Positions 1 through 36,331 are shown, numbered from the stretch's first letter. The stretch is 36,331 nucleotides of DNA from a virus (IMGVR_UViG_3300027791_000001:1-36331), one strand, 5' to 3'. The notes: generated from the sequence alone by a model not told the origin. Numbers and translations: made by a program.

Positions 1-127
1 AAAGGACAGGCTGGAGATCAAGCCTCCTTTCTGGGAGGTAAAGATATTCGATTTGAGAGAGACGGAAAAGGTAATTTTCAACAGTTTGTTGGCGGTAGCA
101 AAGGCAAGGTTTTTACCGAAGACCAAA
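1..127. repeat. Terminal overlap: identical to 36205..36331 (circular closure or assembly overlap)
   Basis: Both ends compared base by base and found to be the same 127-mer. The tape-measure reading frame is continuous across the junction. Confidence 0.95.
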
Positions 128-225
128 TGCAGGCGGGTTTACAAAAGCAGATAGATAAAGACGGCTCCCAAAGTCTTCTCGAAAAAATTAACACAACCCT
201 AGAGGGTAAATTCGTATCTCAATAG
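1..225 (+). CDS. Tail tape measure protein, C-terminal end (wrap-around continuation of 34339..36331; stop TAG at 223-225)
   Basis: Position 1 equals 36205, which is a codon start of the ORF opened at 34339. Frame 1 stays open to TAG at 223-225 (..KGNFQQFVGGSKGKVFTEDQMQAGLQKQIDKDG..VSQ*). Confidence 0.85.
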   Translation, partial: KGQAGDQASFLGGKDIRFERDGKGNFQQFVGGSKGKVFTEDQMQAGLQKQIDKDGSQSLLEKINTTLEGKFVSQ

Positions 226-229
226 AATC

Positions 230-988
230 ATGGCTAGAACAGACGACACACCGCAGAGTTTAGATACTAGATTAACCCTAGACGAGACATCTAACTTCTT
301 CATTAAAGATTCCAAGATTCCAAAATCTTACGTAGTCGTAGAAAAATTTGCTCAAAACAAAGGAGTATACGAACCTGCGTTGAACGGGACTGCTCATCCG
401 AAAAAGACAGATTACTTCTTATACGAGGAAGGGGTGAAAGATATAGGAAACGGAATTTTCGAGATCGAAGCTAAGTATGCTGCTGTTCCTCCCGTATGGT
501 ATTCTTTCGAGACTTTAAATATTCCTTATTTAAAGTTCAAAGGATTAAGCGTCATAGGAGGTGGATCTATAACGATAAATACATCATATTTATTTAACTA
601 TCTAAATGTCCAATCTATTGGCGACGTAAATTTTTTTAATGAAGATGCCTATACGAGTTTTGAAGAAAAAAGCGGGACTATAAATGTAGCCTGCAGAGTT
701 AAGCATGAGTATGTAAATGTCCCAGACGAACAAGTTCTAAGTGGGGATATTCTCCAAATGAATTTTGATATCTCTTCCGATCTTAATTCCTACGGTGACG
801 GCGCATTTAATTGCGGTTACTTCCTAAGAGACGCCGATCCTCAAGTAAATGTATCTATAGACCAAGAAAGCACATTCCAATTTGAGACATCTACCCCATC
901 GCCTAAAGTTAGGATAGCGAGCGGTGTTTATGCGGGTAATATATACTACAAACACACCTATGAAATAATCGCTCCTGTAACAATATGA
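230..988 (+). CDS. Tail-tip structural protein (distal-tail-protein position); function inferred from position only
   Basis: 252-aa ORF starting 4 nt after the tape-measure stop. Its stop overlaps the next start (ATGA). No motif recognised. Confidence 0.4.
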   Translation: MARTDDTPQSLDTRLTLDETSNFFIKDSKIPKSYVVVEKFAQNKGVYEPALNGTAHPKKTDYFLYEEGVKDIGNGIFEIEAKYAAVPPVWYSFETLNIPYLKFKGLSVIGGGSITINTSYLFNYLNVQSIGDVNFFNEDAYTSFEEKSGTINVACRVKHEYVNVPDEQVLSGDILQMNFDISSDLNSYGDGAFNCGYFLRDADPQVNVSIDQESTFQFETSTPSPKVRIASGVYAGNIYYKHTYEIIAPVTI

Positions 989-1569
989 TCGAAAGATTGC
1001 AAAGAGGGGAAGCTCCGTCTTTATTAGATACAGATAAGGCTAATGAGATTATAGACACTATAAATGCTATCACAAATTCTAGAGGCGAAAACGGGATAGA
1101 GGTAGCATCGGATCAAGGCGGGGGGCTGATTTTATCTATAAGAGATGATGGCGATCCTGATCCTCGAGCTTACGCGCCTCTAGAAATAATGGAGGTCACG
1201 AGCGAAAAAGTTTTAGTAAATCCCGCTACAATAAATAACGAATTGATACTTCCGGTAGGAGGAGTAGACTATAACGCAAGCGAATCGAATCAATATTTGT
1301 GTGTAGACGTAAGAATAAACAACAATTCTGAGATCACTTCAGCAGAACTGAAAATTGAATCGTCTCCTCCAGACGCATTCGGACTAGAAAAAGATAAAGC
1401 TCCCGGCGACTTTAAAATTCTAATAGGCATTATAAACGATCTAAGTTTTTACCAATTAAGAACTGGAAATTTAACAGCTAGACCTAGCGCAATTTATGAA
1501 ACACCTAAAGAAACGGTAGACATAGGAGAATACGATCACGACATATACTATAGCTGGGTATTATCTTAA
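985..1569 (+). CDS. Hypothetical protein, tail-tip module
   Basis: 194-aa ORF, ATGA-coupled to the upstream gene, low-GC composition like its neighbours. Confidence 0.4.
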   Translation: MIERLQRGEAPSLLDTDKANEIIDTINAITNSRGENGIEVASDQGGGLILSIRDDGDPDPRAYAPLEIMEVTSEKVLVNPATINNELILPVGGVDYNASESNQYLCVDVRINNNSEITSAELKIESSPPDAFGLEKDKAPGDFKILIGIINDLSFYQLRTGNLTARPSAIYETPKETVDIGEYDHDIYYSWVLS

Positions 1570-1575
1570 CTTGAG

Positions 1576-4323
1576 ATGGACTACACGCCGCCGCCTTCCA
1601 GAAATCAAATTTCATACATTAGCTCTGTAGTTTATCTTGCAAGTGATGATAGCAGATTTAACGCGGGTAAGACTAAACTTGCTACAAACACTGAGTATAA
1701 CTATACTGGAACTGATCCCGATGGTTCCTATTCTAATCACACAATTGACATTGATCAGGAAGTAGAAAGCGGAGCATCTGACGGGCTATTGACATATGGA
1801 ACTACTTACAATTCGGATGCAGAAGGCGTAACTTACACGCAAAGGACTGGATCGACGGCAACAAATGCCGGCTACAGCTCTGGCGACACCGAACATTCGG
1901 GATCACAAACTAGAGATTACGGGCGTTTTCAAAGCACTAGGACTTTCAGTTCGACAAACAATACTTTTTCTAATAGCAATTCAAACAATAACTTCTCCTC
2001 TAGTCGTGCGGGTGTATTCGCATTCTCACAAACCTCTATCGGAGCTACTGACGATAGTTATTCTTACTCATACTCACGTAAAAATAGATCGGATGGTGGG
2101 ACTATAGAATCAAAAGCAGAAAGCCGTTCACCGATAGAGAAGGTATCAGGAGGGCTAACTGCAAGCAATGCTGCGGGGACTACAATATATGGTGACGAAA
2201 CAAGAACTAACTCCGGTTATACTCTCAATCAAACCTTCGTGGTGTTCCAAGATGCGGCAAAAACTACGGAAGAGACTCGGGACACGCTCATAGAGTATTC
2301 GTCGGACGAAGACGGACGGAGCGTGTTTTCGACTTTTTCTACGAATCGAATAATCAGAGGAGGAGCCGGCATATCACGAACTCAAACTGGGGCTACTAAC
2401 GACCAGCAAGGACTGACCTTAATAACTTACGATGACGATGGGAATGCTGGGCAATTCGTGACAGGAAGCACATCTACGGACGGAACTTCTACTAGTTATG
2501 AGACCACAGCTATCGAATCGACTCAGACTGGATCATCTACTCGTAGTGGTAACTTAGGCAGTATAGGCTCTTCTAGGTCATACTTCACTTCTACAGATTC
2601 AATCGTATTGGAGGTTAATTCTACGGCTTCTACATCTACAGAGATCTCAAGGGTTTATAACTTGCCATCTAGCTATACAGACACTATGAGAAGTTACATT
2701 TTAGAGTCTACTGAAATTTCCCAAACAAAAGAGGGGGTCTCATCCTCCTCAGTGGAATTAACCGAAGATATTGTTACATCTCCATACAATTACAGATATT
2801 ACGAGGTGTCTACAAGAGTATATGAAGGTGGATGGGGAGTTTATGGATTTACTGATATTACCTCTGTAGAAAATTCTTTAGATTTTACTACATTCGGAAC
2901 AGATCAAGTTTCTACGAGCGTAGAAATAAATACAAATAGACGAATAGTTACATACAGTCAGGAGAATGCCATAGCAAGTTCTGATACTGACACCACCAAC
3001 ACCACTACTGACGCTGAAGATTTTACTTTTACAATACCTGCGACGACCACCGAGGGTGATCTAGAATACATAAATAACTCTAGTGTCACAACTACTGTCA
3101 TCGAAATCGGCTCCGGCTCTCCGACGAATACATACTATAGAAACCATAATTTCGGAGGATCACCCGCTACATCCTACGATACGGTCGAAGGCAGTTCTGT
3201 GATATACCTTGGAACTACTAGCGCAGATACAGACAGAAAATCTACCTTAACCACCGAGCGCGTAATTTCAATTCAAAGTTCTCCATATGCTAACACATAT
3301 ACGATTGTCGGAACCTTCCACAATATGGATATAGTGATTACTGATACTTATTTCGACGGGACTAATGTGGAGGAACTAACTACAAATAGAATGCGCGGTT
3401 ATACGACTTTCACGAGCTACAAAAATAATTTTTTTGGAGTCGTTGGCGGGAGCATGAGTAAAACTTTTACTTCTATAGATATAGGAAGAAATATTATTTC
3501 GAGTGCTGTGCCTGCAGGGACTTTCATTACTTTTTCTAGCGCGAAATTAGGAATGAGGTATATATCGCAAAGCAATACAAATATAAGCGATCGAAACAAT
3601 TGCTTTCCTCCAGAAATAAAATACACGGAAAATATTCTGACGACTACTATTCAAACATACGAAGGCGCAGAAGCGGAAGCGACATTGCATACAATTACTA
3701 CAAGGGACGACCAAAGCTACGACATTCCTGTTGCTCAAAGATATTCTATTAACGGATTTAATTATCTGATTAGGGATGAAGAATTGACTGTTTACGATAA
3801 CTTGAAAAACAGCATAACCTATGACGATACGAGCGGCAGAAAAGAATCTAGAGCAACTTTTGCAGGAAGCTTCACAACCGTAAGCACTCTGTCCGACGGA
3901 GAAACTGCGACTGCTAAACAAACTTATGTCGGTCATAAAGTTTTTAACACTTTTTTCGATAATGTCGATGGTGCTGTCACCATGCAAGACTTTACAACAT
4001 ACGATGAGGGACGATTCTTTGGGGGCAATGGATTTTATGATACGTATGAATTTTATTTCGGAGGATGCCAGCACTATGGCTCTAACGGGACTCTAAGCTA
4101 CGCGCAGAGTTTGAAATTTACATTAGTAGATCGAAACGACTCTGGTATTACTACAGAAATATCTGGAGACTTATCCGATTCGGGATTCACTACCACAGAG
4201 CTTGACTTAGGCGGGGTATATTTTATATCTACAGCGAATGAGGCAATTGCAGGATCAGAAAATAGATACGGATCTCAGCTAGTTACTAAAACTTATGCAA
4301 GACAGAAAGATATATACTATTAA
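1576..4323 (+). CDS. Large Ser/Thr/Asn/Gly/Tyr-rich tail-tip or fibre protein (915 aa)
   Basis: Longest ORF in the genome, downstream of the tape measure. Long low-complexity runs (e.g. STRTFSSTNNTFSNSNSNNNFSSS, TSTDGTSTSYETTAIESTQTGSSTRSG). Internal track ORFs are shadows. Confidence 0.5.
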   Translation: MDYTPPPSRNQISYISSVVYLASDDSRFNAGKTKLATNTEYNYTGTDPDGSYSNHTIDIDQEVESGASDGLLTYGTTYNSDAEGVTYTQRTGSTATNAGYSSGDTEHSGSQTRDYGRFQSTRTFSSTNNTFSNSNSNNNFSSSRAGVFAFSQTSIGATDDSYSYSYSRKNRSDGGTIESKAESRSPIEKVSGGLTASNAAGTTIYGDETRTNSGYTLNQTFVVFQDAAKTTEETRDTLIEYSSDEDGRSVFSTFSTNRIIRGGAGISRTQTGATNDQQGLTLITYDDDGNAGQFVTGSTSTDGTSTSYETTAIESTQTGSSTRSGNLGSIGSSRSYFTSTDSIVLEVNSTASTSTEISRVYNLPSSYTDTMRSYILESTEISQTKEGVSSSSVELTEDIVTSPYNYRYYEVSTRVYEGGWGVYGFTDITSVENSLDFTTFGTDQVSTSVEINTNRRIVTYSQENAIASSDTDTTNTTTDAEDFTFTIPATTTEGDLEYINNSSVTTTVIEIGSGSPTNTYYRNHNFGGSPATSYDTVEGSSVIYLGTTSADTDRKSTLTTERVISIQSSPYANTYTIVGTFHNMDIVITDTYFDGTNVEELTTNRMRGYTTFTSYKNNFFGVVGGSMSKTFTSIDIGRNIISSAVPAGTFITFSSAKLGMRYISQSNTNISDRNNCFPPEIKYTENILTTTIQTYEGAEAEATLHTITTRDDQSYDIPVAQRYSINGFNYLIRDEELTVYDNLKNSITYDDTSGRKESRATFAGSFTTVSTLSDGETATAKQTYVGHKVFNTFFDNVDGAVTMQDFTTYDEGRFFGGNGFYDTYEFYFGGCQHYGSNGTLSYAQSLKFTLVDRNDSGITTEISGDLSDSGFTTTELDLGGVYFISTANEAIAGSENRYGSQLVTKTYARQKDIYY

Positions 4324-5335
4324 AATAGCGACAGTCATCGTAGCGACTAAATCATATCTCGATCCCTTGAGCGTTTGTCTTCGTCGAACTAGGACGGCGA
4401 TCGATCACGAGACCGAGGAGTTCGATCATCGGCTCATAGTAGTAACTGACAAGGCGAGCAAAAAGGCAGTCGATGTCTTGGCGGCAGACTTCGAGGATAG
4501 AGAGATCATAGCGATCGACATGGAGGAGAGCGGGGAGCATTACAAAAAAGATCGGCAGATCCTAATAGCCTCTTTGCAGTCTACAGGATTTGACGCAGCT
4601 CGAAGATGGGGATGCGACTTTCTCTGGAGCGTCGAAGCGGACGTTCTAGTTCCTCACAATGCTCTATCTGTCTCTCTAGATATGCTACGCTTCGATGGAG
4701 GCTACTACGACGTCTCTTTCGTCACTTATCCTTCGCAGGGAGGCGGGAGCTTCCTAGGAGGATATGGAAGCTATAGGCATCCGATTGCAGAGGACTTTCT
4801 GCCAGAGGAAAGAATCATTCCCAGCAAGTTGCAGCTACTCATAGACTCTTGTGAGGAGAGGCTGCAGAGCAAGGATATGAGCCGAGAATTATTTGACAAG
4901 GAGCATGAGAGAATGGGCAGAATACGGGAGCGAATAAAAAAATGCCCTCCTAGCGGCAATGTCTTCGAGCTTAATTCTAAGAAGTGGAGGCGCAGAGGAT
5001 GGCTAGACAACAGTCACGTCGGCACAGGTCGAGGCGCAGTCATCGAGACGGACTGGACTGGACTCGGATGCACTCTCATGAGCAAGCGGGCAGCATCCCT
5101 AGCTCACTTTGATGGATACGATGGAGGGGGGACACAGGATTTATACCTCAACTGGCACAAATGGCATCCGGAAGGACTGCGATTATGTTGCATCACTCAC
5201 ACGGTCTGCGATCACGTCGTAAGAGACGAAAAAGCAGAGGGAGGACTTACTACTCTCAAGTCTTATCACGAAACAGAGGGAGAGACCAGAGGGCATCTAC
5301 GGTATCGTCGAGTTCCGTTCCATAAATTTATATGA
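4295..5335 (+). CDS. Putative glycosyltransferase-like protein (GT-A-like N-terminus); weak call
   Basis: The N-terminus KIATVIVATKSYLDPLSVCL resembles the first beta-strand and loop of GT-A enzymes. An acidic WSVEADVLVP segment could be DxD-like. Overlaps the upstream ORF by 29 nt and is ATGA-coupled to the SDR gene. Confidence 0.3.
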   Translation: MQDRKIYTIKIATVIVATKSYLDPLSVCLRRTRTAIDHETEEFDHRLIVVTDKASKKAVDVLAADFEDREIIAIDMEESGEHYKKDRQILIASLQSTGFDAARRWGCDFLWSVEADVLVPHNALSVSLDMLRFDGGYYDVSFVTYPSQGGGSFLGGYGSYRHPIAEDFLPEERIIPSKLQLLIDSCEERLQSKDMSRELFDKEHERMGRIRERIKKCPPSGNVFELNSKKWRRRGWLDNSHVGTGRGAVIETDWTGLGCTLMSKRAASLAHFDGYDGGGTQDLYLNWHKWHPEGLRLCCITHTVCDHVVRDEKAEGGLTTLKSYHETEGETRGHLRYRRVPFHKFI

Positions 5336-6321
5336 AAAAAAGACTACTAATAACAGGGAGCGCAGGCTTCGTCGGATCTCATACGGCGAAGTGGGCATTA
5401 GAAAAAACAGACTGGGAAGTGGTCGGACTCGACTCTTTTCGTCATTTAGGCGACGCAGAGCGAGTCTCTGCAGATCTTCGATACTCGATGATCTGTCACG
5501 ATCTTAACGCTCCCATCTCGAAGCGAACAGCGTCTAGAATCGGACATATAGACTACATCATAAACTGCGCCTCGATCTCGCATGTAGACACGTCGATCGA
5601 AGATCCTATCTACGTCTGGGAATCAAACACTCGACTGATCGGCAACATTCTACACTACGCTCGCGAGCTTCCTAGCCTAGAGAAGTTTATCCACTGCTCG
5701 ACAGACGAAGTCTTCGGCTCTGCTTACGGAGACCACTGTCATCACGAGTGGGACGTCATCGCTCCGTCTAATCCCTACGCGGCATCTAAGGCGGCACAGG
5801 ACGCTCTATGCTTCGCCTACTGGAGAACATACGGAACTCCTATCGCGATCACGCATTGCATGAACATGATCGGCACGATGCAGGATCCGGAGAAGTATCT
5901 GCCGAAGATTGTCTCTCGCGTTCACAAGGGAGAATCGGTCACGGTTCACGGACAGCCGGACAAGGTAGGATCTAGAATGTATATCGACTGCAGGAACCTT
6001 GCCGACGCTTGGCTGTTCATGCTCCAAGAGGTAGACTTCGCCTGCTACGGCGAGCAACATTCTCGGATGACTAAGTTTAACATCGCAGGACTAGAGGAGA
6101 TCACGAACCTAGAACTCGCCCAGAAGATTGCTGATCGCATGGGAAAAGAACTCATCTACGAGTTTGTAGATTTCCACAAGACAAGAGCAGGACACGATCT
6201 TCGATACGCTCTAGACAGCAGTAAGATATACGAGGCAGGGTGGCGTCCTCCTATTGAGCTAGAGGAGACGTTCGATCAAGTGATCGACCATGTGAGGAAG
6301 CACGAAGCATGGCAGGAGTAA
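5332..6321 (+). CDS. NAD-dependent sugar-nucleotide epimerase/dehydratase (extended SDR, dTDP-glucose 4,6-dehydratase-like)
   Basis: N-terminal Rossmann motif ITGSAGFVGSH, STDEVFGS, catalytic YAASKAA (YxxxK), and NMIGTMQDPEKYLPK resembling the RmlB NNYGPYQFPEKLIP segment. Confidence 0.85.
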   Translation: MKKRLLITGSAGFVGSHTAKWALEKTDWEVVGLDSFRHLGDAERVSADLRYSMICHDLNAPISKRTASRIGHIDYIINCASISHVDTSIEDPIYVWESNTRLIGNILHYARELPSLEKFIHCSTDEVFGSAYGDHCHHEWDVIAPSNPYAASKAAQDALCFAYWRTYGTPIAITHCMNMIGTMQDPEKYLPKIVSRVHKGESVTVHGQPDKVGSRMYIDCRNLADAWLFMLQEVDFACYGEQHSRMTKFNIAGLEEITNLELAQKIADRMGKELIYEFVDFHKTRAGHDLRYALDSSKIYEAGWRPPIELEETFDQVIDHVRKHEAWQE

Positions 6322-6343
6322 ATTGACATAGAGGGTATTTTTA

Positions 6344-8182
6344 ATGGGACAGTCTGTATATATAAATTTTGACACTGAAAACCTCAGATCAGCTCGAGTT
6401 CGAGGCATCTCAGATCTAAGAAATCAAAAATTCACTCAGTTCGTCGTAGGCGATAGCATCGAACTCGATCTATACCTTACGGGATCAGGAGGAATCTTAA
6501 ATATACAGGACTACTCTGCGATTCGTCTCGGCATAGGTGGTCTCGACGATCGACCTGAGTCTGGAAGTTATGAAGTAGCAGGGTCTGATACTCTAGCTTA
6601 CGATCACTCAGCGTCCGACCTACAGACCGTAGTTGCTTCTGCTGCCTCCTCAAATGTCACGACTAAGCTAACTGACTTCGTGTTCAAAATTCAATTTGAC
6701 GCAGTCGGAGCGCAAACCATCCCATCCCTCGACATCACTTTGCTGCAGCCTCGAAGCACGGTAAGCGTCAGTAGATTAGTAACTGGAGACGCTACGACTA
6801 AAGAGGTCTGGCTCTGGAGGCTCTTCAGAGATCCTCTAGCGTTTACGAATACATTCACAAACATCGCCGGCAACGGAGTGAGAGGAACTCTCTCGCTAGC
6901 TACTGCAGGACTCTACGAGCTTATAGCGCAATCTAGTTCCGTAAATACGTTCTTCGAGGTCGAGCTTACTTCCAGCGAAGGAAACGTCCGCACAGTTTTA
7001 CAAGCTAAAGTATCTCTTAACGGAGAGGTCATCGGTCACAGCTTTTCTGGTTCAGTTCCGTCCGGTGGATCAATGCCTGCCGAGGCTACAGTGTTCCTTC
7101 AGTCCTTTCCTGATCCAGATATCGTAGGCGATCTCACAGTCGATGGCGATGTCGATTTGAATAGTGGACTTCAAGTATATGGCGACGTAACCTTTGAAGA
7201 AGGTGTAGACTTTGAAAAAGGAGCAGAGTTTAAAGGTGGAGTTGGTATCAGCACAGGAGCTGCTTCAGGATATGTCTTAACCTCAGACGCTACAGGAGGA
7301 GCATCTTGGCAGGCTAATGCTGTTAGTTATCCCTTCACAACTGACTTTCTGGGAAGCACAGAGCGAACACAGAATCTAACAAGTATTACAGGCACTAGTG
7401 GCTTCAAAAATCAAAGCACTTTGGATGATATTTATATTGGCAGTAATGTGACTTCGATTGGGTCTTATTCCTTCCAGTATAGCGGTAATTTTAACATCAC
7501 CATTGCTTCGGGTTTAACAACAATTGCTAATTACGGATTCGGTGGGTCTTATATAAGTGGGTCGCTTAAGCTTCCCAACAGCGTGACTACGATTGGGGAT
7601 TACGCATTTATATATTCTACTTTGACTAGCATTACTCTTCCAACTAATGCTAGTTTCACTACGATTTCGTCTGGTGCATTCGTTTACAATAGTTTAACCA
7701 GTCTTACGATCCCAGACAGCGTTACAACGATTGGCTCTTCTGCATTTTCATACGGTTCAATATCTAGTCTTACGATCCCAGACAGCGTGACCTCGATTGG
7801 AGGTAGTGCATTTGCATTCTCTAGTTTGACTAGTGTTACTCTTCCAACTAATGCTAGTTTCACTACGATCCCCAGTTCTGCATTTCAATATTGTGGACTA
7901 ACCAGTATTACGATTCCCAGTAACGTTACCTCGATTGGGGGTTATGCATTCGCAAGTGGTGGACTAACCAGTCTTACGATTCCAAGTAGCGTGACTACGA
8001 TTGGGTCAGGTGCATTTAGATACAATGCTTCATTAACAACAATAAACTGCTTGCGTATGACTCCTCCAACCGTAGTTTCAGGTGCATTCGGCTACGTTAA
8101 TACTACGGAAATTCACGTTCCAACATTAGCCACAGGATACGGGCTTACATTAGACGGCTTGACAGTTGTAAAAGACTTGTAA
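6344..8182 (+). CDS. Tail fibre / receptor-binding protein with C-terminal BspA-type leucine-rich repeats
   Basis: About 10 repeats of ~22-24 aa of the form LTS(I/L)T(I/L)P(D/S/T)SVT(S/T)IG..AF (LRR_5/BspA type). Preceded by the fibre-like ...GYVLTSDATGGASWQ segment. Sits in the tail module next to a fibre assembly chaperone. Confidence 0.7.
   Translation: MGQSVYINFDTENLRSARVRGISDLRNQKFTQFVVGDSIELDLYLTGSGGILNIQDYSAIRLGIGGLDDRPESGSYEVAGSDTLAYDHSASDLQTVVASAASSNVTTKLTDFVFKIQFDAVGAQTIPSLDITLLQPRSTVSVSRLVTGDATTKEVWLWRLFRDPLAFTNTFTNIAGNGVRGTLSLATAGLYELIAQSSSVNTFFEVELTSSEGNVRTVLQAKVSLNGEVIGHSFSGSVPSGGSMPAEATVFLQSFPDPDIVGDLTVDGDVDLNSGLQVYGDVTFEEGVDFEKGAEFKGGVGISTGAASGYVLTSDATGGASWQANAVSYPFTTDFLGSTERTQNLTSITGTSGFKNQSTLDDIYIGSNVTSIGSYSFQYSGNFNITIASGLTTIANYGFGGSYISGSLKLPNSVTTIGDYAFIYSTLTSITLPTNASFTTISSGAFVYNSLTSLTIPDSVTTIGSSAFSYGSISSLTIPDSVTSIGGSAFAFSSLTSVTLPTNASFTTIPSSAFQYCGLTSITIPSNVTSIGGYAFASGGLTSLTIPSSVTTIGSGAFRYNASLTTINCLRMTPPTVVSGAFGYVNTTEIHVPTLATGYGLTLDGLTVVKDL
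7621..7869. repeat. Higher-order DNA repeat inside the LRR region (45 bp with 2 mismatches at 7621-7665 and 7825-7869; 204-bp period)
   Basis: tactcttccaactaatgctagtttcactacgat is identical at 7633-7665 and 7837-7869. The additional agtcttacgatcccagacagcgt copies are 66 bp apart (about 7700 and 7766). Confidence 0.9.
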
Positions 8183-8197
8183 TAGTTGGATGCCTAT

Positions 8198-8998
8198 ATG
8201 AGTAAAAAATTACATTTCGTATCTGGTCTTCCAAGAGCTTGCTCAACGCTACTCTGCAATCTACTAGCACAGAATCCAAAGGTTCACGCTACTCCTACTA
8301 GTGCCTTGCACGAAATAGGCTACATCGCTCGGCAAGTTTTTCAAACTGAAGAAGCAAAAGCAGTAGATATGAAGAATGTCCTTGAGCCTATGTATCTGGA
8401 CTACGTCAAAGCTGGTTGCGAGAATGCTTTCAATAACATCACGGACAGACCTGTAATCGTGGACAAGTGCCGATCTTGGGTTGGTCATCTTGACCAGCTA
8501 TTTAAGGTTTGGGAGGACGCTAAGGTTCTTGTTCCTGTTCGTGACATTAGAGGCGTTCTGTCCAGTATGGAGAAAAAACGCAGACAGCATCCAGAGGTAT
8601 TCAATGGCATTGAGAAAGAGAATCCCCAAAACTGGACAACAATTGATAAACGGGTAAATGGATGGCTACAGAGTCCTCCTATCGGAATTGCTATTGAGAG
8701 ATTGCACGAAGCTAAGGAACGATTCGGAGATAAACTTATGTTTGTTCACGCTGAGGACTTAACTGAAAAACCTCAGCAAGTAATGAACCGAATTTGGGAG
8801 TATCTAGGCGAAGAGCAGTTTATTCACGATACTTCTAATGTAGAGCAATACACTCAAGAATACGATGTTGGTTTTCCCTACGGAGATCACGTTATTCGAC
8901 AAGAAATAAAACCTTTAAAAAAAGACTGGCACGAGATTCTTGGTCGTTCGCTTTCAGAACAACTTAACCAAAAATTTAACTGGATAAATAATTTATGA
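8198..8998 (+). CDS. Sulfotransferase family protein
   Basis: PAPS 5'-phosphosulfate-binding-like loop GLPRACSTLL near the N-terminus and a 3'-phosphate-binding-like VPVRDIRGVLSS. First in-frame ATG is at 8198; the track ORF opens at TTG 8186. Confidence 0.7.
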   Translation: MSKKLHFVSGLPRACSTLLCNLLAQNPKVHATPTSALHEIGYIARQVFQTEEAKAVDMKNVLEPMYLDYVKAGCENAFNNITDRPVIVDKCRSWVGHLDQLFKVWEDAKVLVPVRDIRGVLSSMEKKRRQHPEVFNGIEKENPQNWTTIDKRVNGWLQSPPIGIAIERLHEAKERFGDKLMFVHAEDLTEKPQQVMNRIWEYLGEEQFIHDTSNVEQYTQEYDVGFPYGDHVIRQEIKPLKKDWHEILGRSLSEQLNQKFNWINNL

Positions 8999-9381
8999 AA
9001 TATGCAGTAATTAACTCAAGGGGCAGAGTCCTTCGTTCGTCAAAAGATGAGTTCAAGTTCATCGCTGAAGGCAACAAAATGGTATCTATATCAAACGAAA
9101 AAGCTAAGCAGGTCGAAGCTTCAAGCGAACCGTTGTTCCTAGTTGAAGGAAACTTAATTACTTTAAAGGAGAAGTTATTTAATGATAACCCTGAAGCAAT
9201 AAAGGAGTCCTTACGTCCAGAACGCAATCGACTACTCGCTGAGTCCGATTGGACGCAGTTAAATAACTCACCGCTTGCCGAAGCCGAGGTATTCTCTTGG
9301 GCTGAATACCGTCAGAAGCTTCGCGACCTTACTGACAACATTGACAACAACGTCAAAGTAGAGTTTCCTTTAGCTCCATAG
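8995..9381 (+). CDS. Tail fibre assembly chaperone (Tfa-like)
   Basis: The C-terminal half RNRLLAESDWTQLNNSPLAEAEVFSWAEYRQKLRDL matches the hallmark motif of caudoviral tail fibre assembly proteins. ATGA-coupled. Confidence 0.6.
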   Translation: MKYAVINSRGRVLRSSKDEFKFIAEGNKMVSISNEKAKQVEASSEPLFLVEGNLITLKEKLFNDNPEAIKESLRPERNRLLAESDWTQLNNSPLAEAEVFSWAEYRQKLRDLTDNIDNNVKVEFPLAP

Positions 9382-9384
9382 AAA

Positions 9385-17154: not shown

Positions 17155-18992
17155 GAGAGGCGACAGAAGCCGGAGATCTAGATCGAGCCTCCGAGCTAAA
17201 GAGAGATCTGCCTGCAGTCATGTTCTGCGGTCAATTCTCTCGCAGATCGAGCAAGGATATCACTAGCCATTCTGGGATGATCTGCATGGATGTCGATAAG
17301 ATCGAGTCTCCGGCGAAGAAGGTAGACGAGATGAGGTTCGATCCTCACGTGATCGCAGCGTTCGTCTCTCCTTCCGGCAACGGACTCAAAGCTATCTTCG
17401 CTATTCCTAACAGCATCGAGAAGCATCGCGACGCCTTCGAGTCTGCCAGACGCTATCTCTCGACATACGGACTCGAAGCGGACGAGAGCGGCAAGGATCT
17501 GTCTCGGCTATGCTTCCTGTCGCACGATCCAGAGATTCACTACGCTCCAGACGCCGTAGAGCTTCCTGTCTATATCGAGGAGGATCAGTTCGTCGCCAAG
17601 ACAGAGCCTAAAGCTCCCACAGGCGATCGTATCGGCGATCGCTACGCCTCGTCTCCTAATGTTCGAGAGCGATCTGTAGCTATCCTACAGCGTCTAGGAT
17701 GGCAACTACAGCGAGGAGACAGCACTCGGACATATTGCACTCGTCCAGAGAAGCGAGGAGGCATATCCGGAGAGCTACGTTTCGACGGATCTTTCTTCTG
17801 CTACACAGACAGCGCATCTCCTCTAGATCCTATGCAGAACTACTCAGCTTTTGCTCTATACGCTACGGCAGAACATGGAGGAGATTTCAAGGAGGCGGCT
17901 ATATCTCTAGCAGAAGAGTTCGGAGACAACGAGCCTGCGGTAGACGGTCGCGACTTCTACAACAAGACTCAAGCGGTCGAGACACAGCAGATCGAAGTAG
18001 ACGAGAAGAAGGCGCAGGCGATCGGCAATATGCCGACGTGGACTCCTTTAGATGAGATCCCACACGATCTTAACAAGATAATCATGCAGAGATATCCCGT
18101 TCTTATCGAGGGTCTACTGCACAGAGGCACGAAGATGGTTCTGGGAGGAGGCTCGAAGTCTTACAAGACTTGGACGCTGCTGAACCTAGCCTTATCCGTA
18201 GCGAGCGGCAAAGACTGGTTCGGACATAAGGTCGTGAATACCGGACTCGACGTGATCTTTCTTAACTTCGAGGTTCCGCATGAGTTCTTTCTCGATCGCG
18301 CTCGGAGCGTCTGTAAGGCGATGAATGTAGATCCTCCTGCGAATCTAAAGGTCTGGAGTCTGCGAGGAATCTGCAACGACTTGAAGCTCATTCTAGAGAC
18401 TCTGCAGGAGCGTCTGACTAACGGATGCGCTCTGCTCTGTATCGATCCAATCTACAAGGCTATCGGAGATCGAGACGAGAACAGCGCAGGCGATATCGGC
18501 ATGCTCATGAATGAGGTCGAGGCTATCGTCGAGAAGACCGGAGCGGCTGTGGCTTTCGGAGCGCACTACTCGAAAGGAAACCAATCGGAGAAGGATCCTC
18601 TCGATCGAATAAGCGGCTCTGGCGTCTTCGCTCGCGATCCAGACACGATCATGGGACTCACAGCGCACGAGGAGAAGGACTGTTATACGGTTCACTCTGC
18701 GCTACGGAACTTTGCCGGCAAGGAGCCTTTTGTGGTCGAGTGGGACTTTCCTCTCTTTAGTCTTCGCGAAGATCTGGACGCTAAAAAGCTCAAGAGAGCA
18801 GGGCAAAAGATTAGCGCAGGAGAGATCCTCGCAGAGATCACTAGCGTGGGAGTCGATCCCAGAGATTTCGTTCCGAGCATGTCGGCGAAGCACGACGTCA
18901 GCGATCGAACCGTCTACCGGCTTCTGAAGAATCTCAGCGATAAGAGAAAGATCCACAAGACAGCAGGCAACTACTTCCCTACAGTTAAATGA
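16995..18992 (+). CDS. Primase-helicase (VirE_N/BT4734-like primase domain + RecA-fold AAA_25/RepA-like domain)
   Basis: LPAVMFCGQFSRRSSKDITSHSGMICMDVDK...FVSPSGNGLKAIF...LCFLSHDP (Prim-Pol-like VirE_N pattern). Then a P-loop LGGGSKSYKTWTLLNLALSVASG and Walker B-like LLCIDPIYK. Confidence 0.7.
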   Translation: MEERQSTTDYYGTRRISIVKQARATETADFDLEKIIEWIRDGSGRFAKNVTAVREATEAGDLDRASELKRDLPAVMFCGQFSRRSSKDITSHSGMICMDVDKIESPAKKVDEMRFDPHVIAAFVSPSGNGLKAIFAIPNSIEKHRDAFESARRYLSTYGLEADESGKDLSRLCFLSHDPEIHYAPDAVELPVYIEEDQFVAKTEPKAPTGDRIGDRYASSPNVRERSVAILQRLGWQLQRGDSTRTYCTRPEKRGGISGELRFDGSFFCYTDSASPLDPMQNYSAFALYATAEHGGDFKEAAISLAEEFGDNEPAVDGRDFYNKTQAVETQQIEVDEKKAQAIGNMPTWTPLDEIPHDLNKIIMQRYPVLIEGLLHRGTKMVLGGGSKSYKTWTLLNLALSVASGKDWFGHKVVNTGLDVIFLNFEVPHEFFLDRARSVCKAMNVDPPANLKVWSLRGICNDLKLILETLQERLTNGCALLCIDPIYKAIGDRDENSAGDIGMLMNEVEAIVEKTGAAVAFGAHYSKGNQSEKDPLDRISGSGVFARDPDTIMGLTAHEEKDCYTVHSALRNFAGKEPFVVEWDFPLFSLREDLDAKKLKRAGQKISAGEILAEITSVGVDPRDFVPSMSAKHDVSDRTVYRLLKNLSDKRKIHKTAGNYFPTVK

Positions 18993-19243
18993 AAATGAAA
19001 GAAGCAATCAAGATACAGCAGTTCCTAGAATCATGCGATCCGAAGGCTATACGATTCGACAACCTAGACGACGCCATCATCGGAGTCTCTCATTCTGGCT
19101 GTCTATGCTACAGCTATCCTAAGCTCGTAGGCATATTCAAGGAGAGAGATAAGATGACTGACGAGGAGGCTGTAGACTGGATCGACTACAACGTGATCGG
19201 CACGATGGGAGGCGAGGGCTTCATCATAGTCTTCGAGAACTAG
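18989..19243 (+). CDS. Hypothetical protein (84 aa)
   Basis: ATGA-coupled to the primase-helicase stop. Confidence 0.55.
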   Translation: MKMKEAIKIQQFLESCDPKAIRFDNLDDAIIGVSHSGCLCYSYPKLVGIFKERDKMTDEEAVDWIDYNVIGTMGGEGFIIVFEN

Positions 19244-19255
19244 CCAGAATCTAAT

Positions 19256-19264
19256 CCCCCCCCC
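19256..19264. repeat. Poly-C tract (C9) in an intergenic region
   Basis: aatctaatCCCCCCCCCtatgtag. Flanks resemble those of the C8 tract at 21924-21931. Confidence 0.9.
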
Positions 19265-19270
19265 TATGTA

Positions 19271-19297
19271 GCCTCTCGCGAAATCGAGGGGCTTTTT
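19271..19297 (+). terminator. Rho-independent terminator
   Basis: GCCTCTCG-cgaaat-CGAGGGGC (8-bp stem, one G.U) followed by TTTTT. Confidence 0.7.
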
Positions 19298-19311
19298 AGT
19301 ATCTAAAAGAA

Positions 19312-19415
19312 AGTGAATAAAATGTGAATATGCTATTGACATGCCTCTAATCGGTCTTTTGTATCTGTCATATCGAAGCGGTTCTCGCCTAGAGCAAACA
19401 CGAAAAAAACACGAC
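19312..19415 (+). promoter_or_regulatory. Conserved promoter + 5' leader cassette, copy 2
   Basis: GTGAA x2 spaced 11 bp apart, TTGACA at 19336-19341, 17 nt, TTGTAT, then CTGTCATATCGAAGCGGTTCTCGCCTAGAG...ACACGACATG. Confidence 0.55.
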
Positions 19416-19514
19416 ATGACAAACATCCTCGAAAAACTCACACGCTCCTACGCTCTACTATTCGCAGTTGCTATCGCCATCCCTTCTATCCTTCGCATCG
19501 TCGAAGCAGTCTAA
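19416..19514 (+). CDS. Very small hydrophobic peptide (32 aa), cassette cargo
   Basis: ATG sits at the position where all other cassettes start their cargo. MTNILEKLTRSYALLFAVAIAIPSILRIVEAV has one TM-like segment. Read by hand. Confidence 0.35.
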   Translation: MTNILEKLTRSYALLFAVAIAIPSILRIVEAV

Positions 19515-19533
19515 CCCAAAAACACTACACACT

Positions 19534-19755
19534 ATGCCTAATCTAACAGAACTAGAGAAGCTCGTAATCTCCACTATAAAACTTCATGGAGATGACTGGT
19601 ATGCTATTCCTCACATGCACTTTAATGATATATCAGAAATTTCTGATATCGATCCTAAAAAACTTCGAGGAGTAATAAGCTCACTTGAGCAAAAAGATAT
19701 AATCCAAGAAAGCGAGCTTCCGCACTGCATGGCATGGATGGTAGTTTCTCTCTAA
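19534..19755 (+). CDS. Hypothetical protein (73 aa), low-GC insert
   Basis: ATG follows the recurrent taacccaaaaacac..ATG leader. The track start at 19468 would overlap the preceding peptide. Confidence 0.5.
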   Translation: MPNLTELEKLVISTIKLHGDDWYAIPHMHFNDISEISDIDPKKLRGVISSLEQKDIIQESELPHCMAWMVVSL

Positions 19756-19770
19756 ATCTAACCACACAAA

Positions 19771-19797
19771 GTCTCGCTCGCACGACGCGGGCGAGAC
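19771..19797 (+). other. Intercistronic stem-loop without a U-tract (11-bp stem, 5-nt loop)
   Basis: GTCTCGCTCGC-acgac-GCGGGCGAGAC with one G.U pair, followed by gctaacccaaaaaaa. Confidence 0.45.
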
Positions 19798-19818
19798 GCT
19801 AACCCAAAAAAACGCACT

Positions 19819-20264: not shown

Positions 20265-20277
20265 CCCTAAGCAAACC

Positions 20278-20406: not shown

Positions 20407-20408
20407 AT

Positions 20409-20773: not shown

Positions 20774-20848
20774 GAGTTCCTTTAGATATCTACGAGACAC
20801 GAGACGCCTCTAGAGGTATGCAGGCTCTCCTGTAGGCTCTCAGAGCTT

Positions 20849-33740: not shown

Positions 33741-34346
33741 ATGCAGCTACGGGCGGTCAGTTTTAATGATGCCGCTAAAAAGCGCATTCTAGACGCCGCA
33801 GCTTTTGAGAAGAAGCTGCGGATGGAAGCTGTAGTCGGTGTCGATCAAGAGATCGCCGGTTTAAAACTAAGGCAGATATCAGTCAGAGATCTATTGCACT
33901 TAGAGTTTACAGAGAACAGGCTAACTATGGGCGAGGAGCCTTGGCTGGAAGACCTAATGGCTTTTGTTTTAATGCTTTCTAACGATAAGCCATTTTTTAA
34001 GTCTCGATATGCTAAAAAAGTGGGAAGCATCATTCGAGAGAATGAAGATGTAAGATTAGATTTAATCTGCTACTTTAACGCAGCTTTTACTGACATGCCT
34101 TCGAGCGTAAATCCTTCCGGCGTATCCGAAAAGTTCGATAGCACGGTCTCCGTCGTGACTCTGGTAGACGGCATAGCGTTTAACTATGGGTGGACTCTTG
34201 ACGACATACTAGACACGCCCGTATCGACCGCCCTTCAGCTATTGCAGCGCATCCTTCAACGTAGCTCAGAAGGATACTCTCCGCGCAACGCAATAACTCA
34301 ACAGGCTAAAGCAAAAGAACTAAATAGACTAAAAGAAAATGGCTAA
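33741..34346 (+). CDS. Tail assembly chaperone (gpG/GT position)
   Basis: 201 aa, directly upstream of and overlapping (8 nt) the tape-measure start. No convincing frameshift site found. Confidence 0.45.
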   Translation: MQLRAVSFNDAAKKRILDAAAFEKKLRMEAVVGVDQEIAGLKLRQISVRDLLHLEFTENRLTMGEEPWLEDLMAFVLMLSNDKPFFKSRYAKKVGSIIRENEDVRLDLICYFNAAFTDMPSSVNPSGVSEKFDSTVSVVTLVDGIAFNYGWTLDDILDTPVSTALQLLQRILQRSSEGYSPRNAITQQAKAKELNRLKENG

Positions 34347-36331
34347 TTTTTCACTACTAGCAAAGATAGGACTAGACTCCAAAGGCTTTCAAAAGGGTCT
34401 AGACAAAGCTAAAACTGGAGTCAGTAAGTTTGGCAGGGGCGTTTTAAACGCGAGCAACAAGCTCGCTAAAATGGGGTTCGGAGCCGCCGCCGCAGGTTTT
34501 GCGCTGCTCTCTAAGAACGCCATCGCTCTCGGCTCCGAGCTTTCAGACATAGCAAACAACACGGGATTCGCCACAGAAAAGTTTCAAGTCTTTAGGGGCG
34601 CACTTATCGACGCCGGAGGTGCTGCCAAGAGTATGGAGAAGGCTATCGTCATCATGCAGAAGGCGGTCGTTCAAGGCTCTGAGGGTCTGACTACTTATCA
34701 GCGAGCCTTCGAGCGTATAGGTCTGAACGTAGACGATCTCAGAAAGATGCGTCCGGAGGATCAGTTCGAGACGATAGGAAAAGCCATCGCAGGAGCGACA
34801 GATCAGCAGGGAGCTTTAACTGCAGCGATCGAGATCTTCGGACAGAAGAACGCAGGCAGACTCATAGAGGTTTTCAAGCGACTCGACAAAGATGGCTACG
34901 GAAAGATGGCTAAAGATATCGAGAAAGCCTACGGAATCATGGACGCGGAGACTCAAAAAGCTCTCGACAAGGCGGCAGATACGATAGAGCGATTTAAGAA
35001 TAAAGCTACGATTCGAGTAGGAGAGTTGATAGCGGGAGAAGCGGACGGAGCCGCGCTAAAAATTCTAGGACTTTCGATTGCCAAAGCGGGCGCACAGCTA
35101 GGCGTAGGAATGATAAACGGAATAGCGGATAGTGTCCGTGCCGCTCGCGAAGCTTTCGGAGCTTTCGCTGACTTCACATCAAATGCCTTCCTTACAAGTT
35201 TACGACTAATGTGGAAGACTTTCCAGATAGATTGGTTCGAGGGACTAAACAAGATGATCGCTGGGTTAAATAAGATCCCCGGAGTAGAGATGGAGCCTAT
35301 AAATACAGACAAACTTTACGACGATTTAGATAAGGGCATAAAGGATCAGGGCAAATCTTATAACGAATTTTTTCAGGCTAGAATGGATCAAGGTTCGGAG
35401 TTCGATATGGAGAATCGTCTCGACTACAGTCCGAGCGAGTTTTACGATAAAGAGATAGAGAACCAGAAAGCGATACTCGCAGCATCTAGAAAAAAGCAGG
35501 AGGAACTCGAAAATTTAGGAGGCGAAGGCGGCACAGGAGGATCCGGAGGATCCGAAGGAGGCGCAGGAGGATCCGGAGGCGAAGGCGGCACAGGATCCGG
35601 AGGAGGCGATCCCGAGGCAGACGAAGAAAAGAGGAAGGAAAAAATAAAAGCTCTAGAAAAGGAGATTAACGACATGCAGCTCGAAGCTATTCGAGCGCAA
35701 GCCAAAGGAGACGAGGATGCACAATCCTCTCTGGAGAAAAGAGCAGAGCTGTCTAAGAAAATCTTAGATATCATGAGAAAATATAACGTCTCGATGGAGG
35801 AGGCTTCAAGTCTCGCCGAGCAGACTGCAGAAAAGCCAGAGGAGCCAACAGCAGACGATAAGAGATCGAAGAAGATCGAGGGTCTGGAGAAGCAGATAGA
35901 AGATATGGAGCTACAGGCTATACGCGCTCAAGCTAATGGCGACGAGAAGGGTCAGGCTGCTATGGAGAGAAGGGTAGATCTAGCAAACAGCATCGTAGAC
36001 ATCATGAACGATCACAATGTCTCGCAGGAAGAAGCCACTCGCATAGCCAATAAAATGAGAGATGCAGGAGAAGCGAAAGATGCTCCTAGGAACGAACTAA
36101 CGGGAAGAGATCTTCAAGATGCAGCCAATCTAGCAGGCAAAGGACAGGCTGGAGATCCAGCCTCCTTTATGGGAGGTAAAGATATTCGATTTGAGAGAGA
36201 CGGAAAAGGACAGGCTGGAGATCAAGCCTCCTTTCTGGGAGGTAAAGATATTCGATTTGAGAGAGACGGAAAAGGTAATTTTCAACAGTTTGTTGGCGGT
36301 AGCAAAGGCAAGGTTTTTACCGAAGACCAAA
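34339..36331 (+). CDS. Tail tape measure protein (runs off the window end and continues at 1..225; 696 aa in total)
   Basis: Frame translated by hand from ATG 34339 with no stop to 36331; absent from the track because no stop lies in the linear window. TP901-type N-terminal core (AKMGFGAAAAGFALLSKNAIALGSELSDIANNTGF...), Gly-rich linker, internal 76-aa and 22-aa repeats. Confidence 0.85.
   Translation, partial: MANFSLLAKIGLDSKGFQKGLDKAKTGVSKFGRGVLNASNKLAKMGFGAAAAGFALLSKNAIALGSELSDIANNTGFATEKFQVFRGALIDAGGAAKSMEKAIVIMQKAVVQGSEGLTTYQRAFERIGLNVDDLRKMRPEDQFETIGKAIAGATDQQGALTAAIEIFGQKNAGRLIEVFKRLDKDGYGKMAKDIEKAYGIMDAETQKALDKAADTIERFKNKATIRVGELIAGEADGAALKILGLSIAKAGAQLGVGMINGIADSVRAAREAFGAFADFTSNAFLTSLRLMWKTFQIDWFEGLNKMIAGLNKIPGVEMEPINTDKLYDDLDKGIKDQGKSYNEFFQARMDQGSEFDMENRLDYSPSEFYDKEIENQKAILAASRKKQEELENLGGEGGTGGSGGSEGGAGGSGGEGGTGSGGGDPEADEEKRKEKIKALEKEINDMQLEAIRAQAKGDEDAQSSLEKRAELSKKILDIMRKYNVSMEEASSLAEQTAEKPEEPTADDKRSKKIEGLEKQIEDMELQAIRAQANGDEKGQAAMERRVDLANSIVDIMNDHNVSQEEATRIANKMRDAGEAKDAPRNELTGRDLQDAANLAGKGQAGDPASFMGGKDIRFERDGKGQAGDQASFLGGKDIRFERDGKGNFQQFVGGSKGKVFTEDQ
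36139..36270. repeat. 2 x 66-bp tandem repeat (22 aa: KGQAGD(P/Q)ASF(M/L)GGKDIRFERDG) at the contig junction
   Basis: Units at 36139-36204 and 36205-36270 differ at 2 positions. The second unit starts exactly where the terminal overlap (window position 1) starts. Confidence 0.9.
36205..36331. repeat. Terminal overlap: identical to 1..127
   Basis: See the feature at 1..127. Confidence 0.95.

Follow-up and report, generated by a model that had tools for sequence, protein, structure and literature searches.

The distal tail operon of the virus IMGVR_UViG_3300027791_000001, whose 36,331 nt of DNA (hereafter the window) were analysed over their full length, carries two independent enzyme-plus-fibre modules within and around positions 1,576 to 9,381. 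Module 1 consists of a conserved tail-module gene (g985), a hypervariable Ser/Thr-rich tail-tip protein and a predicted glycosyltransferase (GT), often together with a sugar-nucleotide dehydratase of the short-chain dehydrogenase/reductase (SDR) superfamily or with a cupin. Module 2 is a swappable cassette of a leucine-rich repeat (LRR) fibre tip, a putative sulfotransferase (SULT) and the tail-fibre assembly chaperone Tfa, which occurs on many phage backbones. We propose that the enzymes of both modules may modify the phage's own tail proteins, a reading that we consider plausible, if somewhat short of probable, on the sequences and structure models described below.

Two modules in the distal tail operon

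The division of the region into two units emerged from two sets of IMG/VR loci, one of 80 loci encoding relatives of the GT (GT identity 42-95%) and one of 80 loci fetched for SULT, in 75 of which the SULT gene was callable. No SULT was found in the 80 GT loci as fetched, the LRR-tip/SULT/Tfa cassette is missing from 79 of these 80, neither GT nor SDR occurred within 6 kb of SULT in the SULT loci (0/75), and no g985 module was present in the 80 SULT loci. The framing as a single three-enzyme system, as in the initial annotation of the region, is contradicted by this missing co-occurrence of GT and SULT; since the two enzymes are rarely encoded together, sulfation of the glycan made by the GT is also unlikely as the general role of SULT. 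Comparison with the closest relative (locus L013) revealed 87.6% nucleotide identity across window positions 4322-7164, which hold the GT gene, the SDR gene and the first 274 codons of the fibre gene, and 87.5% identity across 9541-11200; no nucleotide similarity to this relative was found across 528-4321, a stretch that ends with the Ser/Thr-rich gene, or across 7165-9540, which holds the LRR tip, SULT and Tfa. In the relatives of the GT locus, the match to the LRR fibre is limited to its N-terminal 40-68%. Both modules are juxtaposed in a distant circular phage (L026 and L132, joined by a 56-nt overlap), which encodes, without an SDR, g985, a 720-aa Ser/Thr-rich protein, GT (50% identity), a 670-aa LRR fibre, SULT (59%) and Tfa, in this order; the modules meet in one genome because both belong to the distal tail region.

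The predicted glycosyltransferase of module 1

The GT sequence has no match of its own in Pfam, PHROG, NCBIfam or PDB sequences, and searches of the PDB with the single sequence and with a profile returned nothing meaningful, so that the fold assignment rests on a structure model. An AlphaFold2 model with a mean predicted local distance difference test score (pLDDT) of 85.6 and a predicted template modelling score (pTM) of 0.82 yielded 392 PDB matches at E<=1e-3 in Foldseek; all 50 of the matches listed adopt the nucleotide-diphospho-sugar-transferase (GT-A type) fold, almost all of them being glycosyltransferases, with COLGALT1 (top, 1.5e-10), mimivirus R699 and ppGalNAc-T1/T2 as the best. 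Those top matches in BFVD that bear names are likewise nearly all annotated as glycosyltransferases, and PF00535 was reached by 3 of 38 family members (best 1.9e-6), the Pfam GT2 models PF00535 and PF13641 not recognising the GT of the window itself. On the strength of the model, 4295-5335 is a GT-A glycosyltransferase; the initial annotation had called this open reading frame (ORF) GT-A-like and had named a search for a GT fold as a check, and the structure search together with the PF00535 matches of the three relatives bears the call out. An acidic nucleotide-binding residue and a DxD-type metal motif are both present, as D52 (in 'VTD', where strand 43-52 ends) and E114-x-D116 (in 'SVEADV', where strand 109-114 ends; ExD instead of DxD), which are invariant in 38 GT sequences and were placed by secondary-structure order rather than by residue-level superposition. 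The C-terminal beta region of the family also contains an invariant His/Cys cluster (H302, C305, H307, H325, H334), which may be a structural or catalytic metal site and is not typical of GT2 enzymes. With a hydropathy maximum of 1.36, the protein has no transmembrane segment.

The family to which this GT belongs is essentially restricted to phages. A word-indexed protein search returned 603 homologues at E<=0.001, and a full HMMER scan of 1.84e9 representative proteins showed that the family stands apart, its 132 clusters not grading into generic GT2 enzymes. A tblastn search of 50,697 cultured phage records found no match, and family members were present in 9 of 185,579 species genomes; the assemblies that bear them come from Verrucomicrobiota, among them Chthoniobacter with a 347-kb contig, from a Kiritimatiellota isolate (a scaffold) and, for one small contig, from a Rickettsiales bin. 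The host lead for this uncultured phage group is the Planctomycetes-Verrucomicrobia-Chlamydiae (PVC) superphylum, which for the marine phage itself is a candidate host group.

The dehydratase and other deoxysugar partners

The enzyme encoded next to the GT is well placed among known dehydratases. Its best PDB matches are all dTDP-glucose 4,6-dehydratases (2hun at 1.2e-44), it keeps GxxGxxG, the dehydratase-specific STDEV, PYxxSK and RxGHDLRY, and its motifs GSAGFVGSH, STDEV and PYAASK align with those of 2hun, 6bi4, 8du1 and 1r66 over residues 4-329; family, PDB and motif evidence hence agree on the extended-SDR dehydratase that had been proposed. Because the score for the RmlB equivalog model TIGR01181 (208.4 bits) lies below the equivalog cutoff (365.1), we name the protein a nucleoside diphosphate (NDP)-hexose 4,6-dehydratase rather than a dTDP-glucose-specific one. 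It has no transmembrane segment.

The SDR gene is translationally coupled to the GT gene by a stop/start overlap, and the adjacency of the two was found in 25 of 25 close relatives (L001-L025), with identities of 63-95% for the GT and 71-99% for the SDR. Recurrent GT partners are the SDR, in 24 loci, and an RmlC/FdtA-like cupin of about 142 aa, in 15 loci (e.g., at 7573-8001 in L029 and at 9005-9442 in L043, with 13 further loci). While the best match of this cupin is PF14667 'Polysacc_synt_C', it also matches RmlC (PF00908) and FdtA (PF05523), and we treat it as sugar-nucleotide epimerase/isomerase-like despite the PF14667 name. As the SDR and the cupin both act around NDP-4-keto-6-deoxyhexose, a donor of the 6-deoxyhexose type would be coherent with either partner.

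The Ser/Thr-rich tail-tip protein

The 915-aa protein encoded directly upstream of the GT is indeed rich in Ser and Thr, as first noted, and has no match in Pfam, PHROG, NCBIfam or the PDB. Its description as mucin-like is contradicted by its composition, with 1.6% Pro, 6.6% Tyr, 4.7% Phe, 38% beta-formers and a longest S/T/G/N-type run of 14 residues, and was rejected.

Throughout the 80 GT loci, the GT keeps company with a protein of this type. In 70/80 its immediate neighbour is a protein of 400 aa or more with a Ser+Thr fraction of at least 0.20, most exceptions being truncated contigs, and the median Ser+Thr fraction of these neighbours is 0.28, versus 0.139 in other large proteins of the same loci (Mann-Whitney p=2e-30). 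These Ser/Thr-rich proteins fall into more than 40 clusters without detectable similarity to one another: the 915-aa protein has 6 detectable homologues among the 80 loci, full length in 2, and an iterated hidden Markov model (HMM) joins 7/79; ten diverse members had no Pfam match and a profile of the Ser/Thr-rich protein had no PDB match. That they are nevertheless one tail component is indicated by synteny, as an iterated HMM places the g985 family directly upstream of the Ser/Thr-rich protein, in matching orientation, in 62 of the 80 loci. In an inverted subgroup the GT gene lies on the opposite strand, yet the 3' ends of the GT gene and the Ser/Thr-rich gene still abut.

Loci from genomes and metagenome-assembled genomes gave the same picture across a locus GC content of 0.34-0.64, the order of Ser/Thr-rich gene then GT being seen in 7 of 7 informative loci and g985 in 6 of 9, that is, in all 6 that retain a gene upstream of the Ser/Thr-rich protein. 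When the search was seeded with g985 instead, all 20 informative loci had the GT, located 2.3-3.3 kb further downstream. No g985 module without a GT was recovered; a tighter alignment gave loci that were GT-positive or truncated, and a broad one was too divergent for a pattern search. The highest Ser+Thr content seen here (55%) is that of a 462-aa protein encoded after the GT gene at 9089-10477 of L171, from Kiritimatiellota B1221 (locus GC 0.34).

The putative sulfotransferase of module 2

The protein encoded at 8198-8998 scored 57.7 bits against PF13469, for which the cutoff is 27, and its family conserves motifs of the 5'-phosphosulfate-binding (5'-PSB) and 3'-phosphate-binding (3'-PB) loops, GLPR[SA][CG]ST and VRD..R....S, with R13, K90, R115, D116 and S123 invariant. 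The earlier call of a sulfotransferase with loops for 3'-phosphoadenosine-5'-phosphosulfate (PAPS) is upheld by this combination of family match and conserved motifs. In profile searches of the PDB, the tyrosylprotein sulfotransferases (TPSTs) TPST1 (1.5e-11) and TPST2 (1.5e-8) came ahead of every other sulfotransferase, polyketide synthase and heparan-sulfate enzymes included, and a Foldseek search with an AlphaFold2 model (pLDDT 88.8) returned TPST1/2 at all of ranks 1-11, with template modelling (TM) scores of 0.56-0.68. R13, K90, R115 and S123 align with TPST Arg, Lys, Arg and Ser residues that we take to be PAPS-binding or catalytic. The HMM alignment sets the 'GEE' of TPST1 against non-acidic positions of SULT, with an invariant H38-E39 located 4-5 residues further on; Glu99 of TPST2 is presumably the catalytic base. 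Motifs and modelled fold together identify 8198-8998 as a PAPS-type sulfotransferase, with the TPSTs as its nearest relatives of solved structure. It lacks a transmembrane segment.

How common such a gene is in phages depends on where one looks. The initial annotation regarded a phage-encoded sulfotransferase as uncommon, which holds among cultured phages, where SULT was found in 10 of 50,697 records (cyanomyophages S-SCSM1, S-SRM01 and S-SKS1 and single-cell 'Marine virus AG-345' contigs), but not in viromes, as at least 554 IMG/VR stretches encode a SULT relative.

The fibre-tip cassette

The flanks of SULT are a fibre and a chaperone. The C-terminal half of the fibre encoded at 6344-8182 is made up of BspA-type LRR_5 repeats (1.7e-50), confirming the BspA-LRR fibre recognised at the outset, and the Tfa-like assignment is likewise supported, with 53.9 bits against PF16778 (cutoff 26.6) for a gene that lies downstream of a fibre gene. 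An LRR_5-like protein is encoded directly upstream of SULT in 37 of the 69 SULT loci that have an upstream gene, a pattern shared by almost every locus in which SULT is at least 52% identical, and in 20 other loci the next gene downstream of SULT encodes Tfa or a DUF4376 protein. Exact-protein look-ups on contigs of 2 kb to 141 kb also placed close SULT homologues between LRR_5 and Phage_tail_APC/DUF4376 proteins. The order LRR, SULT, Tfa recurs on unrelated backbones of 2 kb to 217 kb, including T4-like contigs; those SULT contigs in the 200-kb class carry Phage_tail_C and a T4-type prohead protease S77. SULT is 70-85% identical where the flanking LRR protein is 37-40% and Tfa 34-43% identical, and the SULT-linked LRR C-termini share a conserved cap, …GATGYG.TYGGLTVV.DL. 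Some phages have paired SULT paralogues, adjacent in L121 (about 4283-5900) and one gene apart in L145.

Genome context

At about 36.2 kb, the genome assembled into a complete circle, bases 1-127 of the window repeating bases 36205-36331 exactly as a terminal direct repeat. The tape-measure gene crosses the circular junction, leaving a 663-aa open frame that runs off the end of the window and a stop at 223-225 (Table 1). A 66-nt tandem repeat at 36139-36275 (2.1 copies, 97% matches) overlaps the assembly junction and encodes, close to the tape-measure C-terminus, a 22-aa unit, KGQAGD[PQ]ASF[ML]GGKDIRFERDG.

The source is a long-tailed marine phage; the small and large terminase subunits (TerS and TerL), portal, scaffold and major capsid protein are all encoded in the window. 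TerL (23326-25173) is lambda/GpA-like and about 26% identical to its counterparts in cultured phages, the best being Paenibacillus phage Pd_22F, and megablast of window positions 1-12000 against the 50,697 cultured phage records returned no match; the low TerL identity and the lack of a nucleotide match together mark the backbone as a deep uncultured lineage.

All genes of the tail region lie on the plus strand, including the six ORFs from the Ser/Thr-rich protein to Tfa, each of which was recovered where the initial annotation had placed it. Its view of the region as a tail locus is borne out by the tape-measure gene directly upstream, and the coupling of enzyme and structural genes that it described is real, with stop/start overlaps at 4295 versus 4323, 5332 versus 5335 and 8995 versus 8998. 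No integrase, repressor or Gtr-type gene was found among the ORFs scanned, in keeping with the reported absence of a lysogeny module.

Table 1. Features of the tail region of the window and of the genes bordering it.
Feature	Position	Strand	Evidence
Tape-measure protein gene, 5' part	34342..36331	+	phrog_9483 'tail length tape measure protein', 3e-20
Tape-measure protein gene, 3' end	1..225	+	frame continues across the circular junction
g230, distal-tail gene, 252 aa	230..988	+	weak DUF7663 match; 38-60% identity upstream of g985 in relatives
g985, conserved tail-module gene, 194 aa; start of module 1	985..1569	+	iterated HMM family
Ser/Thr-rich hypervariable tail-tip/fibre protein, 915 aa; candidate GT acceptor	1576..4323	+	29.3% Ser+Thr; follows the tape-measure gene, g230 and g985
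Predicted GT-A fold glycosyltransferase; small unannotated phage-restricted family	4295..5335	+	AlphaFold2 model, Foldseek against PDB and BFVD, alignment
NDP-hexose 4,6-dehydratase (RmlB-like extended SDR)	5332..6321	+	PF16363, 1e-42; PF01370, 5.7e-42
N-terminal (anchor) part of the 612-aa fibre; belongs to the GT-SDR block	6344..7164	+	87.6% nucleotide identity to L013 and L002
Exchangeable C-terminal LRR_5 (BspA-type) fibre tip; start of module 2	7165..8182	+	no nucleotide similarity to close relatives
Putative soluble PAPS-type sulfotransferase, TPST-like	8198..8998	+	PF13469 Sulfotransfer_3, 2.6e-15
Tail-fibre assembly chaperone (Tfa); end of module 2	8995..9381	+	PF16778 Phage_tail_APC, 1.7e-14; phrog_4912, phrog_8716
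Membrane protein, 131 aa, holin candidate; outside both modules	9551..9946	+	phrog_38283, 1.4e-53; 19-residue hydropathy maximum 2.92

The holin candidate opens the next conserved block, nucleotide similarity to L013 resuming at 9541, and a second likely lysis gene, for a 120-aa Destabilase/SLT-type lysozyme, lies at 12876-13238. Further along are genes for a deoxynucleoside monophosphate (dNMP) kinase (11077-11610; phrog_139, 6e-40) and a DNA methyltransferase (16036-16671; phrog_67), and about 10 small plus-strand ORFs (42-95 aa) occupy 18989-21050, between a primase/helicase gene and the terminase genes. A promoter and terminator scan of 1-12000 found nothing beyond shuffled expectation.

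Proposed function and alternatives

Our proposal for the two modules is self-modification of the tail. The soluble GT and SDR and, separately, SULT would be made alongside the late structural proteins, and tail proteins would be modified in the cytoplasm ahead of assembly. The dehydratase would convert host NDP-glucose to NDP-4-keto-6-deoxyglucose and host enzymes would complete the 6-deoxyhexose donor, a step for which other phages may use their encoded RmlC/FdtA-like cupin; the GT would then move the 6-deoxyhexose onto Ser/Thr residues of the neighbouring tail-tip protein. Independently, SULT would use host PAPS to sulfate the LRR fibre tip that accompanies it; the TPST-like fold makes a protein side chain, Tyr for example, the probable target. 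Decorated in these ways, the receptor-binding apparatus would have its adsorption, stability or shielding adjusted.

The initial annotation had offered modification of the phage's own Ser/Thr-rich tail protein as one of two readings. Comparative genomics favours modification of its own tail proteins, and the argument from Ser/Thr content turned out weaker than had been assumed. LRR fibres without a nearby GT have Ser+Thr fractions of 0.22-0.32 and are thus equally rich in these residues, which shrinks the compositional argument to the observation that the GT adjoins a fibre-like protein. Several further points weigh against self-modification. A homologous tail module is common to the phages carrying module 1, so that adjacency may in part be inherited gene order, and no comparators lacking the GT were found that could separate inheritance from functional coupling. 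Similarity of fold does not fix the acceptor, and SULT and the TPSTs are 17-20% identical; the catalytic Glu of the TPSTs aligns with a non-acidic SULT position, and the C-termini of SULT-linked LRR proteins contain no acidic-Tyr motif. A 4,6-dehydratase by itself gives no finished donor sugar, a host supply of PAPS is an assumption, and in cyanomyophage S-SCSM1 the more distant homologues of SULT have non-fibre genes as neighbours. Finally, there is no chemical evidence of modification, and the phage is uncultured.

The main competing explanation is that the GT with the SDR or cupin, and separately SULT, alter glycan precursors of the host envelope during infection, so that infected cells and debris no longer bind phages using that receptor. 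Such genes would travel with those for receptor-binding proteins (RBPs) because receptor and mask must match, and the tight linkage to RBP genes seen here is the pattern expected of an RBP-plus-mask cassette; llp of T5, which adjoins its RBP gene, is a precedent for a receptor mask. Phages commonly encode soluble GT-A enzymes and SDR+GT2 pairs that target host glycans, and a homologue of the SDR occurs in 253 phage records and adjoins a GT2 gene in the listed cyanophage ACG-2014f records. Also consistent with masking are the match of the N-terminal region of SULT to the Nod-factor sulfotransferase NoeE, the carbohydrate sulfotransferases among the structural matches of SULT, and a host lead in PVC bacteria, which have complex, often sulfated glycans. 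We judge receptor masking a serious rival, less likely than self-modification. A mask should co-vary with receptor specificity, whereas the enzymes here are conserved beside unrelated replacement RBPs, and enzymes that stay constant while RBPs are swapped favour self-modification. Within the tail module the GT belongs to the core (20/20 informative loci) and is not a patchy accessory, and its presence across divergent phages and retention through inversion fit a morphogenetic role better than an accessory one. Self-modification is also favoured by the protein-modifying nature of the nearest structures, those of COLGALT1, R699 and the ppGalNAc-Ts for the GT and the TPSTs for SULT. The genes lie within a late tail operon, with overlapping stops and starts; the enzymes have neither transmembrane segments nor Gtr-type partners; and both families appear essentially phage-restricted, the nine GT-bearing genomes having a tail-module context wherever this could be judged. 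For the specific form of host modification put forward initially, in which the enzymes alter host surface glycans as in seroconverting temperate phages, we found no specific support, as the GT and SULT have no transmembrane segments, no GtrA/GtrB/GtrC-like or lysogeny genes were found in the ORFs scanned and the enzymes are conserved beside swapped RBPs.

The genes might instead be passengers or 'morons' unrelated to the fibres, gathered at a recombination hot spot where insertions are tolerated. Mosaicism of the region is clear, SULT is missing from nearly all close relatives, the distant cyanomyophage homologues of SULT occur in non-fibre contexts and, in distant loci, the neighbours of the GT are often small unannotated genes. 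A passenger origin is improbable in our view, as specific partners are kept across backbones (the GT with g985 and a Ser/Thr-rich protein in at least 70 loci, SULT with LRR_5 in 37), the GT-SDR block is the conserved and not the variable part of the region, and the adjacency survives inversion.

A structural role, in which the GT-like and/or SULT-like proteins would be virion components that serve as glycan- or nucleotide-sugar-binding modules, would suit genes placed between structural genes, with SULT between a fibre gene and a chaperone, and enzyme folds are sometimes recruited as receptor-binding domains. Such a role seems highly improbable for compact single-domain enzymes that have no fibre-attachment domain and show no variation at residues of catalytic type (D52, E114 and D116 of the GT; R13, K90, R115 and S123 of SULT), the more so as PAPS and NDP-sugars are absent outside the cell.

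Hypermodification of DNA, with the GT glycosylating modified phage bases from a deoxysugar donor, was rejected and deserves almost no credence: a dNMP kinase and a DNA methyltransferase are encoded and virus-encoded GTs are known to glycosylate DNA (Pyle 2024, as cited in PMC12619734), but the scanned ORFs include no hydroxymethylase or thymidylate-synthase-like gene, and hence no sign of glycosylated DNA, and the GT is locked to the tail module, not to replication genes, in every lineage examined.

Implications and comparison with known systems

Both enzyme-fibre modules are widespread and previously undescribed, and they offer an annotation rule, in that the GT and SULT point to tail-tip and fibre-tip genes for which homology is undetectable. 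Module 1 adds a compact GT-A family, unannotated in Pfam, PHROGs and NCBIfam, whose candidate substrate is encoded next door. Host range is usually ascribed to the amino-acid sequence of the fibre; if self-modification were true, an unrecognised chemical layer would shape adsorption, stability and escape from hosts and grazers in very abundant aquatic phages. The broadest form of this idea, that environmental phages routinely decorate their receptor-binding apparatus by two chemistries, glycans of the 6-deoxyhexose type on hypervariable tail tips and sulfate on LRR tips, strikes us as improbable. As the GT-bearing assemblies fall in Verrucomicrobiota and Kiritimatiellota, which specialise in sulfated polysaccharides, a decorated fibre could mimic the food glycans of the host and be captured by the machinery for glycan binding and uptake.

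For sulfation, our literature search found no paper that ties a phage sulfotransferase to a tail fibre and no report of a sulfated phage protein; a sulfated LRR tip, if real, would be the first sulfated phage virion protein, and to our knowledge there are very few other examples of bacterial protein sulfation. Like TPST1/2 and the bacterial enzyme RaxST (PMC4892823), SULT belongs to PF13469 and has the PAPS-binding Arg/Lys/Arg/Ser aligned. Unlike the TPSTs, which are Golgi membrane proteins, the phage enzyme appears soluble, is 17-20% identical to them and has no aligned acidic counterpart of their Glu. Were the TPST-like reading to hold, virion sulfation would be a categorically new component.

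Phage-encoded systems that act on host glycans offer a second comparison. The gtrABC genes, O-antigen acetylases and prophage TarP are associated with lysogeny, are membrane-bound or act on lipid-linked acceptors, and lie near att/int or as morons. The window shares with seroconverting phages and TarP the presence of phage-encoded, glycan-active enzymes with a function related to adsorption, which here is a proposal. The features of gtrABC-type seroconversion were not found in it: within the scanned ORFs it has no GtrA or GtrC, no transmembrane segment in the enzymes and no lysogeny module, and its genes are inside the tail operon. Closer in gene content are the cyanophage pairs of an epimerase and a GT2 (phrog_540; Synechococcus phage ACG-2014f), with which the SDR is 42-44% identical and in which a GT also adjoins; those pairs occur in large myophage genomes and have a Pfam-recognisable GT2, whereas the GT family described here is distinct and locked to the tail.

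Among viruses that glycosylate their own particles, the giant viruses provide one close parallel. A mimivirus 4,6-dehydratase feeds virion glycans, and a virus-encoded GT-A enzyme acting on a viral structural protein is what we propose for the phage, R699 being among the best matches of the GT. R699 is a collagen glucosyltransferase (PMC9546862, PMC12279948), and its acceptor is the hydroxylysine-linked galactose on collagen, while the phage has no collagen-like protein or hydroxylase; the phage GT is 7-11% identical to R699 and COLGALT1, with a TM score of about 0.45.

The closest functional precedent, by analogy, is virion glycosylation in mycobacteriophages, with self-glycosylation of giant viruses also close; our literature search found nothing on O-glycosylation of tail fibres by a GT such as the one described here. 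In mycobacteriophages, capsid and tail-tube subunits are reported to be glycosylated at their C-termini by phage-encoded GTs (Freeman 2023, as summarised in PMC12619734), which are proposed or shown to O-glycosylate these structural proteins within infected cells. As in that system, a phage GT is encoded next to structural genes, which here means that it abuts the tail-tip gene in at least 70 loci. Unlike the capsid and tail-tube acceptors of mycobacteriophages, the candidate acceptor here is a hypervariable tail-tip protein, and the GT belongs to a separate unannotated family and is paired with a deoxysugar enzyme. What the modules would add to this precedent is thus a tail-tip class of acceptor, a new GT family and its coupling to deoxysugar enzymes.

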